DNA of 64,000 nucleotides. Source: an uncultured delta proteobacterium (lineage in GTDB: Bacteria; Desulfobacterota; Binatia; UBA9968). Where the stretch lies: positions 1 through 64,000 of the forward strand of contig CAVXEP010000032.1 in assembly GCA_963760795.1 (NCBI GenBank), given 5' to 3'. Shown in pieces: positions 22,756-25,810 of the stretch. The notes under the pieces were generated by a model. That model saw nothing but the letters and a program-made list of their open reading frames with translations. It was not told where the DNA came from and did no database searches. Within the stretch, counting starts at the first letter, position 1. Every line of letters begins with the position of its first letter. Made by a program: the position numbers and the translations under genes.

Positions 22756-23733
22756 ATGAAAACGAGAGATAGGCGTTGGTGGCTTGCCATCTTTGTGGTC
22801 GCGGCATTGTTGCTGACCGTTCGCGCACAGGCGGCGCAAAAGGAACTACAAAAACTTACGGTCGGCTACACGCCGATTTCCGGCGCGTCGATACCATTGT
22901 TCATCGCTTTGGAGGAAAGACTTTTTCAGAAGTATGGCTACGATGTCAGCGGTATTTTCATGGGCGGCTCGCCGCTGATCAATTCGGCAATTCTCGCTGG
23001 GGAATTTCCGCTCGGCTACACCGGCGGCGGCGCGATCATTTCTAGCCGTCTCGGCGGCAGCGATCTGATTGCGATCGCATCGCCGTTACAAGTCTTAACC
23101 ATCGATGGTTGGGCTCGGCCGGAAATCAAAGCGATTGCCGATCTGCGCGGCAAAAGAGTTGGCGTGACCCGTTTTGGCGCGTCGACTTATTTCGCCGCTC
23201 TTTCGATGTTGGAGTCGGCTGGAGTCAAACCGGGCGAGGTTACGTTTATCCAAAATGGCGGTGTCGGCGAGTCCTTCGCGGCACTCGCGGGCGGTCGAGT
23301 CGATGTCTGCATGATCGGCTACCCCTTTGGCTTGCGCGCCAAAAACGCCGGGTTTCAGTTGCTCTTCCGGCCGTCGACGACCGAATACGGACTATTTCCA
23401 ACGGCCGCCATCGCGGCGCGAGACTCTTGGTTGAAGGATGCCAGGAACCGCAAGGTGGCGGTGGATTTTTTGCGCGCGCTTGGCGAAGGAGTTCAATTGG
23501 CCAGAGAAAACGCCGTCGTGACCAAGAAAGCGCTCAGGAAATTCACCAGAGTCAACGACGATGCCGACCTGCAAGGCAGCTACGAGTTCTACAAAGACGC
23601 TTTCCCCCGGACGCTGAGAGTCGAGGAGCAGGCGATGGCGAACGCGCAAAAGTTTGTCGAGCATCCCAAAGCGAAAGGCGCCGATGTGAAACAGTTTTAC
23701 GACAACAGTTTGGTTGAAGAGGCGATGAAGTAA
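22756..23733 (+). CDS. ABC substrate-binding protein, NMT1/SsuA-like
   Basis: Signal peptide, DLRGKRVGVTRFGAST. Confidence 0.85.
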   Translation: MKTRDRRWWLAIFVVAALLLTVRAQAAQKELQKLTVGYTPISGASIPLFIALEERLFQKYGYDVSGIFMGGSPLINSAILAGEFPLGYTGGGAIISSRLGGSDLIAIASPLQVLTIDGWARPEIKAIADLRGKRVGVTRFGASTYFAALSMLESAGVKPGEVTFIQNGGVGESFAALAGGRVDVCMIGYPFGLRAKNAGFQLLFRPSTTEYGLFPTAAIAARDSWLKDARNRKVAVDFLRALGEGVQLARENAVVTKKALRKFTRVNDDADLQGSYEFYKDAFPRTLRVEEQAMANAQKFVEHPKAKGADVKQFYDNSLVEEAMK

Positions 23734-23767
23734 TTTTGCGCGTGCTTTGCTCTGACGCCGTTGCAAT

Positions 23768-23800
23768 CCCTTACCCTTCCCTCTCCCAAGGGGCGAGGGT
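23768..23800. repeat. CCCTC..CCCTCTCCC palindromic repeat, copy 1
   Basis: cccttacccttccctctcccaaggggcgagggt; near-direct repeat of 25762-25794. Confidence 0.8.
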
Positions 23801-23872
23801 GAAGCTAGGAAAGAGATGGAGATGAAAAGGGAAACCGGTTTTGCAGACTCTTACTTCCTCTCCCTCTGGGAG

Positions 23873-23895
23873 AGACTTTCTATGAATCTTGTCAA
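23873..23895 (-). promoter_or_regulatory. Outward-facing -35 (TTGACA) half of the IS circle-junction promoter
   Basis: In the circle TTGACA(23895-23890) is 17 nt from TATATT(25392-25387). Confidence 0.75.
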
Positions 23896-23918
23896 TACTT
23901 TTTTTCTATAAAAATATT

Positions 23919-25145
23919 TCATGCCGCCTGACGCATCTTCTGAAGCGCGATGTTGGCCAGGTGAAATTGTTCATCGTAAGGCTTATGGTCACGCCACATC
24001 ACAAAGATAATCTTGAGCCACTTGGCGCCCAAGGCGCGCAACGCCTGAGGATGGTTATGGCCTTTATCCCTCTGGCCCCGGTAGTAGAGCTTGGCCCACT
24101 CACTGTTGTTGATCGAGACAAAGGAGAACCAGTACATCGAGTAGCGCAGATGTTTATTGCAAGCGAAGCGGAAAAGGACCGCATGACTTTTGCCACTGGC
24201 CTTAGTTACGGGCACCGCTCCCGCCTCGGCTTGGAGATGGCCGGCCGATTCCCAGCGACCCGCAGCATCGCCCAGTTCAGCCCAGATAGCCGCCACCAAG
24301 GTTCCGCTTTTCCCGCCCGGCAGAGTCGTGGCCAACTGGGCCGCCGGGCTAGAAGCGAAAAAACTCTCGACCTTGTGGTGGTAGGTCTTGACCGCTTTGA
24401 TCAAAGCCCTGAGCTGATCGATGAGGACCTCGACCAGTTGGGCTTTGGCTCTGACCACATGCTCGGGCACCGCCAGTTGCGGCTTTTGAAGCTGCTCCCA
24501 CAACTCCTCGCAGCGCTGTTTATTCACAGAATGCTGTTGGGTAGCAAACCGATTGAACTCTTTACGTTTAAGCGCGCTCAGATGAGCCGGGGTGGGATAG
24601 CGCGTGAGAAAATCCAGAGCCACCTCGGTCTCGATATTCTCAAAGGCGTCCAAGGGCCTGGGATAATACTCTTTGAGCGTGGTGGTGAGCTGGTTGAGCA
24701 ATCGGGTCTTGTGGCGCACCACGCGGCGCTGATCCCGACACAGCATTTTAAGCTCTTGGGCTTTCTCCGAGCTCGGTCGCAGCACTTTCAAGTGCGCCTG
24801 ATCGGTTCTGAGAAACTCCGCCAACACGTAGGCGTCAAAGGCATCGCTCTTCGAGCCGCTCATCCGATAGCGATCCCTGACCCGGTCCACCGCCTTGGGA
24901 TTGACCGGATAAACTTCCACGCCATGATCGAGCAGAAAGTCCACGATGCGCCCCGCCGGCTTCTCAATGGCTGCCCACAGCTCAAAGCCCTCGGCTCTTT
25001 GCTCATCGAGCCAGCGCCCGATCTCGGCCAGACCTTCGACGCTCTCTGGAACTTTCATCTCTCGTACCTTCTTGCCCTCCTCGTCCCCGACATACACCTG
25101 ATGCAAGCGGTCGCCCCAATCCACCCCTATGTAATATCGTTTCAC
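23919..25145 (-). CDS. IS110-family transposase / bridge recombinase
   Basis: RuvC-like DEDD (IGVDWG, AIEKP, KSDAFDA) and Tnp domain with serine (AGAVPVTKASGKS); GGAGG RBS. Confidence 0.93.
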   Translation of the reverse strand: MKRYYIGVDWGDRLHQVYVGDEEGKKVREMKVPESVEGLAEIGRWLDEQRAEGFELWAAIEKPAGRIVDFLLDHGVEVYPVNPKAVDRVRDRYRMSGSKSDAFDAYVLAEFLRTDQAHLKVLRPSSEKAQELKMLCRDQRRVVRHKTRLLNQLTTTLKEYYPRPLDAFENIETEVALDFLTRYPTPAHLSALKRKEFNRFATQQHSVNKQRCEELWEQLQKPQLAVPEHVVRAKAQLVEVLIDQLRALIKAVKTYHHKVESFFASSPAAQLATTLPGGKSGTLVAAIWAELGDAAGRWESAGHLQAEAGAVPVTKASGKSHAVLFRFACNKHLRYSMYWFSFVSINNSEWAKLYYRGQRDKGHNHPQALRALGAKWLKIIFVMWRDHKPYDEQFHLANIALQKMRQAA

Positions 25146-25184
25146 TGTCGGTCGTTCCTCCGTTATGTAATTCCAATCCCAATA

Positions 25185-25380
25185 GCTCTGAACGGAAAGT
25201 TAGCCTTATATCGGTCCTCCAAAAGGGGACGACTTTCTATTAAACTTCAAACCCGTTCTCCTACTGGCCGGGACAGTCTCTCCCTGATTCTCCCGGGAAT
25301 TGGATAAAGGTGGTCCTCAACCAGCAAGCTCTTGTTATCGGTCTCACATAACATGATCTCCTATAATGATTTTCTGCAAC
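25185..25380 (-). ncRNA. Predicted IS110 bridge RNA (boundaries approximate)
   Basis: Two stem-enclosed internal loops carry guides matching the target (25312-25302, 25284-25278) and the donor junction (25240-25231, 25211-25205). Confidence 0.8.
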
Positions 25381-25417
25381 GGTGTTAATATAAGGACAGA
25401 GGTGAGGGCTCTTCCGA

Positions 25418-25810
25418 ATGCTGCCGTATCCACTTAATCAAAAGACTCGCGCTCGTAGGCTGCGGAGCGATATTACCGACGCGGAGAAATATCTTTGGGC
25501 GGGCTTGCGTGACCGCCAATTGTGTGGCGCTAAATTCCGGCGGCAGCATCCCATTGGTCCTTTCATAACCGACTTTTGCTGTGTTGAGCGCGGTTTGGTG
25601 GTGGAACTCGATGGCGGTCAGCATGCGGAGCAAGGGGCGGCGGATCAACGAAGGACTGGTGCCATTGAAACGCAAGGCTATCGCGTCGTGCGCTTTTGGA
25701 ACAATGACGTTTTGACGAATCTTACAGGTGTGCTGGAGAGGATCAGCGAAGAGCTTAAGAGCCCTCACCCTTCCCTCTCCCAAAGGGCGAGGGTAAAAAG
25801 AGTTCCTTGA
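25418..25810 (+). CDS. DUF559 / Vsr-like endonuclease domain protein
   Basis: ARRLR..TDAE, KFRRQHPIGPFITDF, VELDGGQH, GYRVVRFWNNDV. Confidence 0.9.
   Translation: MLPYPLNQKTRARRLRSDITDAEKYLWAGLRDRQLCGAKFRRQHPIGPFITDFCCVERGLVVELDGGQHAEQGAADQRRTGAIETQGYRVVRFWNNDVLTNLTGVLERISEELKSPHPSLSQRARVKRVP
25762..25794. repeat. CCCTCACCC..CCCTCTCCC palindromic repeat, copy 3, overlapping the DUF559 3' end
   Basis: ccctcacccttccctctcccaaagggcgagggt. Confidence 0.8.

Follow-up and report, generated by a model that had tools for sequence, protein, structure and literature searches.

The window analysed here, a 64,000-nt stretch of contig CAVXEP010000032.1 from an uncultured delta proteobacterium (Binatia, UBA9968), carries on its minus strand a recombinase gene with a long non-coding left end, which raises the question of whether the two form an insertion sequence (IS) that selects its sites by RNA guides. 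The original prediction had described an IS621-type bridge-RNA architecture, and this was supported by the protein domains, the catalytic residues, the predicted fold, the element ends, the loop order, the CT core, guide–target covariation and a predicted promoter. The locus is very probably an intact IS110-group insertion sequence that operates as an IS621-type "bridge" recombination system guided by RNA. All sequence strings that had been listed for it were found in place when the minus strand was read.

Element boundaries and the unoccupied site

Minus-strand reading of 23700–25600 revealed a CT at both element junctions. At the left end, the core CT (25394–25393) is followed by tatat (25392–25388); at the right end, atagaaagt (23883–23875) precedes the core CT (23874–23873), which is followed by ctccc (23872–23868). 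Counted with one core, the element is 1,520 bp long, and its main parts are as follows.

23873..25394, minus strand: whole IS110-group element including both flanking CT cores (ends conserved in the family alignment, and an empty-site contig)
25146..25394, minus strand: left non-coding end, 249 nt including the core, encoding the predicted bridge RNA (sequence, folds and family alignment)
23919..25145, minus strand: recombinase coding sequence, 408 amino acids (aa), GTG start at 25145, with a GGAGG ribosome-binding site upstream (open reading frame, profiles and model)
23875..23918, minus strand: short right non-coding end, 44 nt ahead of the core, with the left donor ATAGAAAGT at 23883–23875 (sequence and alignment)

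With the core included in each, the left end measured 249 nt and the right end 46 nt, the long-left and short-right arrangement of the IS110 group. Also as in this group, terminal inverted repeats were absent, the core is a dinucleotide, and the empty site is scarless. The latter was found when contigs of four soil and rhizosphere runs were aligned to 23600–25700. One contig from a metatranscriptome library (run X16) fuses 23872 to 25393 and omits 1,520 nt, the two shared letters being the core; it spans 23768–23872 joined to 25393–25564, and differs at 15 of 277 flanking positions (~5%; 95% similar). This contig is the unoccupied site of a related strain, not necessarily an excision product, and therefore related strains without the IS at this locus coexist in soils.

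Membership in the IS1111 group, which belongs to the same DEDD recombinase superfamily, was considered and rejected. IS1111 elements carry the guide RNA in a long right end and have long sub-terminal inverted repeats, whereas the right end here is 44 nt without structured RNA and the guides lie in the left end. Every testable feature of IS110-group membership was present.

The recombinase carries the DEDD/Ser catalytic residues and an extra helical insert

The 408-aa product matched PF01548 (DEDD_Tnp_IS110; E = 2e-35, 122.3 bits, cut-off 29) and PF02371 (Transposase_20; E = 1.7e-8, 35.2 bits, cut-off 21.3), and scored 165.2 bits against the 140-bit cut-off of the NCBIfam equivalog NF033542, "IS110 family RNA-guided transposase". 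The only sequence matches in PDB were ISCro4 (9t56; E = 1.7e-6, the best) and IS621 (8wt6; E = 7.2e-5). In the 9t56 and 8wt6 alignments, D9, D101, D104 and S317-G318 align to D11, D102, D105 and S241-G242 of IS621, while E61, at which the HMMER alignment is ambiguous, was assigned via its I-E-x-x-G motif. The DEDD/Ser catalytic residues of IS621 are reported to be essential (Hiraizumi et al., 2024, PMC11208158). D9, E61, D101, D104, S317 and G318 were invariant in the 65 unique family proteins translated from the fetched loci; in an 86-sequence alignment extending down to 28% identity, E61 and D101 were invariant and D9, D104, S317 and G318 were at least 90% conserved. The reading frame is full length, as it is in 58 of the 65 unique relatives.

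An AlphaFold2 model built from the 86-sequence alignment reached a mean predicted local distance difference test score (pLDDT) of 95.4 and a predicted template-modelling (TM) score of 0.87. With this predicted model, the top 10 Foldseek matches in PDB were all IS621 or ISCro4 chains (target-normalised TM scores 0.74–0.82, E = 5e-13 to 4e-11, 16–18% identity). The next fold matches were archaeal and eukaryotic Nop5/Nop56/58 and TIGR-Tas proteins, a ranking that agrees with the link between IS110 transposases and Nop5 drawn in the available text of bioRxiv 10.1101/2024.06.21.599552.

The domains predicted from the model are RuvC/DEDD (~1–118), coiled-coil helices (127–160 and 228–264) and Tnp (267–407), and between the two long coiled-coil helices the model places an insert of five short helices (163–219). 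The coiled coil of IS621 comprises residues 123–188 (Hiraizumi et al., 2024, PMC11208158), and it is therefore essentially the helical insert that accounts for the additional ~80 residues. The recombinase had been noted to be longer than that of IS621, and it is (408 vs. 326 aa), but the length, although real, is unremarkable, because the published range of the family is 300–460 aa (Durrant et al., 2024, PMC11208160) and the long form is common. In detail, the helical insert is common to many ~400-aa relatives; among the best 150 representatives of 50%-identity clusters, 113 are 395–520 aa long, and the 37 shorter ones are mostly partial matches to the query. In total, 574 cluster representatives were found at E ≤ 1e-30 and 9,200 at E ≤ 0.001.

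The left end contains a target loop and a donor loop with four guides

Two stem-enclosed loops were found in the 249-nt stretch from the left CT to the GTG start, the target loop first and the donor loop second. Their parts, together with the target sequences on either side of the element, are listed below.

25264..25327, minus strand: target-binding loop; basal stem TTGCTGG..TGAGGAC / GTCC..CCAG, apical stem ATTC/GAAT (consensus ATCC/GGAT) (fold and consensus)
25302..25312, minus strand: left target guide CACCUUUAUCC, same sense as the left target, which would pair with the bottom strand (sequence and covariation)
25278..25284, minus strand: right target guide GGGAGAG, 7/7 complement of CT-CTCCC (sequence and covariation)
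25275..25277, minus strand: predicted handshake bases ACU of the target loop, complementary to the donor AGT 5′ of the core, not to the target's own TC
25190..25258, minus strand: donor-binding loop; basal stem GAACGG/CCGTTC, inner AAGTT/AACTT, apical GTCC/GGAC (fold and consensus)
25231..25240, minus strand: left donor guide AUAGAAAGUC (sequence and family alignment)
25205..25211, minus strand: right donor guide AUAUAAG, 7/7 complement of CT-TATAT (sequence and family alignment)
25203..25204, minus strand: predicted handshake bases GC of the donor loop, the G complementary to the C directly ahead of the core
25395..25404, minus strand: left target flank CACCTCTGTC, cacctctgtc (sequence)
23857..23872, minus strand: right target CTCCC (23872–23868), loop AGA and GGGAGAGG (23864–23857), forming with the core a hairpin like repetitive extragenic palindromic (REP) sequences

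Loop 1 is closed by ctggttgaggac and gtcccggccag, and contains CACCTTTATCC (25312–25302), which matches the left target plus the first core base at 9 of 11 positions; one of the two mismatches would be a U:G wobble against the bottom strand, and the other is an A:C mismatch. Loop 2 contains ATAGAAAGTC (25240–25231), which matches the left donor at 10 of 10 positions. The predicted guide matches, 9/11 and 7/7 for the target and 10/10 and 7/7 for the donor, were thus reproduced. In this copy and in the family alike, the 5′ and 3′ sides of the two internal loops match target and donor on opposite strands.

Hiraizumi et al. (2024, PMC11208158) describe the handshake guides of IS621 as the two bases 3′ of each right guide; once strands have been exchanged, these pair with positions 6–7 of the partner DNA, and pairing with their cognate DNA has to be avoided. 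Here, the A and C that follow the right guide in the target loop, GGGAGAG-AC(U), would pair with the donor T and G (…AAAGT-CT) and not with the target's own C and T (…TGTC-CT), and the G in the donor loop, AUAUAAG-G(C), would pair with the flank base directly preceding the core. Plus strand 23868–23877 reads GGGAGAGACT, which makes the inserted right junction complementary to the right target guide extended by ACU, and the left junction, C-CT-TATAT, has its complement in AUAUAAGG. The proposal that the bases after the right guides are complementary to the recombinant junctions therefore holds in this copy. The base preceding the core was the same in guide and flank in 71 of 71 left flanks, and it is nearly always C; such an invariant flank C amid varying neighbours would fit the demand of a fixed handshake G.

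The available parts of two studies (PMC11208160, PMC11208158) give rules for such systems, namely pairing of the left guide with the bottom strand over 8–9 nt and of the right guide with the top strand over 4–7 nt, handshake bases after the right guides, a CT core, a junction-spanning promoter and, in the IS110 group, a bridge RNA in the left end. As judged from its sequence, the element agrees with these rules.

The stems of both loops are conserved

The single-sequence minimum free energy fold of the left end recovered both stem pairs (z = −2.46), and 2 of 200 shuffled sequences folded equally well. RNAalifold, applied to 46 left ends, predicted a basal and an apical stem for each loop. When the pairs of this structure plus the inner AAGTT/AACTT stem were counted, 97.7% of 1,516 cells contained standard pairs, compared with 24–53% when the 3′ partners were slid by 1–3 columns; the structure had been derived from the same sequences, and most pairs are simply conserved. 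Two-sided (compensatory) changes were found in 8 of 33 pairs, compared with 2.3 (standard deviation, sd, 1.1) in shuffles, none of 500 of which reached 8. A long-range helix enclosing both loops (GUUAUGUGA with UUACAUAAC) appeared in the single-sequence fold only; it is absent from the 46-sequence consensus and was not counted.

Guides covary with the flanking sequences in related copies

Protein relatives at 80–96% identity are numerous in metagenomes, mostly on short contigs. The loci collected for comparison, 32 from species-representative genomes and 80 from metagenomes, encode proteins 53–96% identical to the query, and the records of the species-representative relatives are labelled Binatia, "Deltaproteobacteria" and a few other soil metagenome-assembled genomes. 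The aligned left ends share a nearly unchanging scaffold (GAGGACC, GACTGTCCC, GAACGG, ATAGAAAGT, GTCC/GGAC, ATATAAGG and CCGTTC), and both target-guide segments are hypervariable.

The pairing of each copy's guides with its own flanks was compared with 10,000 shuffled pairings. On the right side, in 81 non-redundant copies, agreement between the five variable positions and the reverse-complemented guide averaged 4.67 of 5 (59 copies had no mismatch, 20 had a single one, and one copy each had two and five), while shuffled pairings averaged 3.08 (sd 0.09) with a maximum of 3.42, short of the observed value in every case. For the 71 non-redundant flanks on the left, agreement in the best of four registers was 7.10 of 9 positions vs. 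5.06 (sd 0.13) in shuffles that were allowed the identical register freedom, and again 0 of 10,000 reached it. Matches that arose by chance complementarity in a GC-rich and repeat-rich region might be suspected, as the target is a low-complexity C/T-rich repeat. However, the guide matches are judged to exceed chance because of these family-wide permutation tests, not because of the single copy, and with no permutation reaching the observed value on either side, a chance origin is effectively refuted and its probability negligible.

The covariation signal covered right positions 3–7 and was gone at positions 8–10; on the left it extended from −1 to −8 and was weak at −9. Because the signal is confined there, the natural target of this clade would be ~8–9 nt, then CT, then 5 nt (~15–16 bp). 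A right-guide pairing that extends past the core plus 5 nt, prompted by a 9/10 match in this copy, was rejected, since positions 8–10 matched no better than expected from composition. The right guides had been called naturally long; the core plus 5 nt stands, but in the family they pair no further, and a 7-nt length is reported for other orthologues.

A further explanation is that the left end is merely a cis-regulatory leader, that the protein picks the site, and that the guide–flank matches are a by-product of one repeat family. Consistent with this, 43 of the 81 copies share one right-guide class and lie in similar REP-like repeats, and shared ancestry could explain part of the agreement. 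On the other hand, 20 right-guide classes, CTGTCCT, CTCGACG, CTCAGCT, CTCGGTC, CTGACCC, CTTCTCC and CTCTTTT among them, each lie beside their own different flanking sequence while the scaffold and the donor loop stay constant, and the covariation signal ends exactly at the loop borders. Moreover, the same architecture is reported to guide IS621 experimentally (PMC11208160). The leader explanation is thus highly improbable, and the agreement of guides and flanks is taken as that of an RNA-guided element.

Several relatives depart from the common pattern. In L056, the flank leads directly to the inside of the target loop, and the left end from the core through the left guide is absent. The alignment shows no canonical CTTATATTA left end for L079, whose loop also contains additional bases, and in L005 a few additional bases separate the core from the expected left target. 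Deletion between short direct repeats is a possible cause of these aberrant left junctions, because the left guide lies in the same sense as the left target ~90 bp away. In three distant relatives with 60% identity (L019, L020 and L022), the donor end is altered to ATAGGAGGT or ATAGGAAGT, and the left donor guides of L019 and L020 bear the same changes as their donor ends (AGAGGAGGT and GTAGGAAGT). The latter two are a small sample of apparent donor-side covariation in an otherwise invariant donor loop.

A promoter is predicted across the joined ends

A feature absent from the original prediction was found at the two ends of the element.

23890..23895, minus strand: TTGACA, −35 half of the predicted junction promoter, 17 bp before the end of the right core
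25387..25392, minus strand: TATATT, −10 half of the predicted junction promoter, directly after the left core

By their positions, ends joined at one CT would give TTGACA-N17-TATATT. The TTGACA spacing is kept in 68 of 75 distinct right ends, and the TATATT hexamer is present in 84 of 85 left ends. A sigma-70-type promoter is therefore predicted across the circle junction, with both halves and their spacing conserved. Durrant et al. (2024, PMC11208160) describe just such a promoter, restored where the circular form brings the two ends together at the core.

Copy number, occurrence and the possibility of a relic

Several observations weigh against a functional bridge system. The element is single-copy in an 89%-complete assembly: DNA, protein and PF01548 searches found no second copy in its own genome (6.58 Mb, 35 contigs), so that the comparison proposed for other genomic copies was made with relatives from other assemblies. 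No circle junction of right end and left end was seen among the contigs of the four runs, although contigs drop rare forms, so that absence is not implied. RNA-library contigs from two libraries cover parts of the element, including 25201–25336 with 0 differences, which cannot show transcription. A scan of 23500–25800 against Rfam 15 at E ≤ 1 returned no bridge-RNA match, although Rfam may hold no such model, and the sole match was a chance-level long non-coding RNA (20 bits vs. a gathering score of 43). Of the 9 non-core positions of the left guide, 2 are mismatched to the occupied site, and nowhere does the genome offer a site with fewer than 2 mismatches. The handshake bases and their partners are nearly invariant in the family, a consistent pattern that is uninformative as covariation. 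Finally, one of the 81 copies, L099, lies between flanks that do not resemble its guides (matches at 0 of 5 positions on the right and 4 of 10 on the left).

L099 may reflect an off-target insertion or a later rearrangement. It is the one exception, among the related copies, to the expectation that other copies do not sit at unrelated sites, and the expectation that guides covary with targets was borne out on both sides by the shuffles.

The single copy, the two left-guide mismatches and the unseen circle junction would also be compatible with a stranded or inactive relic, for which the family assignment is right but the guide lacks good sites or a host factor is missing. However, the reading frame is full length with intact catalytic residues, and the promoter halves, the stems and all four guides are intact. 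One or two left-guide mismatches are common in the natural copies analysed here, and 0–2 are reported for most cases in the available text of Durrant et al. (2024, PMC11208160); with two at this copy's own site, tolerance is evidently present, and the higher specificity that had been suggested for this member is among the weaker parts of the original prediction. The sequence also occurs elsewhere: contigs at least 99% alike align to the stretch in both DNA soil runs examined, which come from separate studies, and 14 soil or mine-drainage runs (10 studies) contain at least half of its sampled words, contigs having been aligned for only 2 of them. A relic is thus improbable, and an intact RNA-guided insertion sequence remains the preferred interpretation.

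The insertion site and its gene neighbourhood

The REP-like hairpin at the target consists of CCTCTCCC, AGA and GGGAGAGG, with the core and the right target within the 5′ arm. Empty copies of the target repeat, with a single CT and the pattern GCCCTCACCTCNNTCCTCTCCCAGAGGGAGAGGARGTAAGA, are present in the own genome at least on contigs C2, C4, C13 (two) and C14; all of them are at least 2 mismatches away from the guide-specified 16-mer, and the occupied site likewise has 2. A hairpin with the core in its 5′ arm was found at 38 of 78 related sites vs. 13 expected (maximum 22; 200 tail shuffles). The proposal that all targets are such hairpins is therefore only partly true, these being enriched and not universal.

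The insertion lies between two solute-binding-protein genes and beside a DUF559 gene.

25418..25810, plus strand: DUF559 gene (PF04480, E = 6e-40), adjoining the IS

In a genome of the same genus (G003; flanking gene 87% identical), the same two solute-binding-protein genes are separated by ~190 bp, without the IS and without the DUF559 gene; for this reason, the DUF559 gene and the repeats look like an earlier insertion into which the IS landed later. A tie between target hairpins and DUF559 genes was rejected, as all but 2 of the 28 hairpin-like sites are more than 200 nt away from each of the 3 DUF559 matches.

Additional degenerate versions of the REP-like hairpin lie at 23770–23800, past the right flank of the IS, and at 25760–25795, at the 3′ end of the DUF559 gene. 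Matches of 85–100% identity to the two short repeat segments that flank the IS (23768–23804 and 23840–23872) lie on numerous contigs, both in this genome and elsewhere in the genus, indicating that the REP-like family is genus-wide.

Comparison with known bridge systems

IS621 of E. coli (PDB 8WT6–8WT9; PMC11208160, PMC11208158) resembles the element in its RuvC-DEDD domain, coiled coil and Tnp domain with a catalytic Ser, in the CT core, and in a bridge RNA in the long left end with the target loop ahead of the donor loop. In both, the left guides have the same sense as the top strand and the right guides are complementary to it; handshake bases, putative in the present element, come next on the 3′ side of the right guides. 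A promoter that circularisation would restore, predicted here, and insertion into REP-like repeats are also shared. The differences are the identity of 16–18% in structural alignment (sequence E-value 7e-5), 408 vs. 326 aa with the helical insert at ~163–219 here, and the hosts, which here are uncultured soil bacteria. Moreover, the natural target would be ~15–16 bp here vs. 11 bp for wild-type IS621, as given in the available text on the latter; the right target guide here naturally comprises the core and 5 nt more, and covariation of the left guide extends across 8–9 nt. Some orthologues with longer right guides than IS621 are reported, as is a left-end bridge RNA in most IS110-group elements (PMC11208160).

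ISCro4/IS622 of Citrobacter rodentium (PDB 9T56) represents the same system, and is the best sequence match in PDB and a top fold match; ISCro4 belongs to the IS621-like clade, whereas the element lies far outside that clade by identity. Since the 72 orthologues screened by Perry et al. (10.1101/2025.05.14.653916) were drawn from the IS621-like clade, the clade described here is apparently untried in the bridge-recombinase literature compared. ISPpu10 and ISPpu9 of Pseudomonas putida are likewise IS110-group elements that insert into repeated intergenic hairpins, but the stem-loop of ISPpu10 is described as a 5′ extension of the target (available text of bioRxiv 10.64898/2026.03.19.712850), whereas in the present element the 5′ arm contains the core and right target, and the 3′ arm follows downstream. 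In short, the element differs from characterised members by its very low identity, its helical insert, its natural 7-nt right guide with handshake bases predicted to pair, and its slightly longer left guide.

Proposed mechanism

By analogy with the IS621 literature, from which circle formation, transcription, RNA binding and chemistry are extrapolated, the element would excise as a circle joined at the CT core, and the joined ends would form the TTGACA-N17-TATATT promoter. This promoter would drive transcription of the left end into an RNA of ~190 nt with two internal loops, of which loop 1 would pair with both strands of a ~15–16-bp target (8–9 nt, CT, 5 nt) and loop 2 with ATAGAAAGT-CT-TATAT, the sequence formed where the element's ends meet. 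The 408-aa DEDD/Ser recombinase, acting as a tetramer, would then swap strands at the CT, the bases 3′ of each right guide pairing with the incoming partner strand as a handshake. In this way, the present copy would have landed in the 5′ arm of the REP-like hairpin between the two solute-binding-protein genes.

Significance

The element is another member of the well-described IS110 class, and the understanding of the mechanism is unchanged; the thousands of IS110 elements reconstructed by Durrant et al. (2024) may include this family. For annotation, it explains a 1.5-kb break in a REP-like hairpin and provides exact element boundaries. Bridge recombinases are under development as programmable genome-rearrangement tools, and the work centres on IS621, ISCro4 and their relatives. 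The present element is a fully annotated natural example with only 16–18% identity to IS621/ISCro4, and its ~80 natural variants show which RNA positions are programmable and which belong to the scaffold, giving a design table for an orthogonal system.

A wider and rather doubtful interpretation, to which we nevertheless give some weight, is that the ~400-aa recombinases with the inter-helix helical module (574 clusters at E ≤ 1e-30) form a distinct "long-form" lineage. Such a lineage would naturally combine features that were engineered into IS621 (a 7-nt right guide, a paired handshake and a 15–16-bp target), its target loop would have been repeatedly reprogrammed while the donor loop stayed fixed, and the module would perhaps gate REP-like hairpins. 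If true, the long-form clade would be a source of orthogonal and more specific recombinases.

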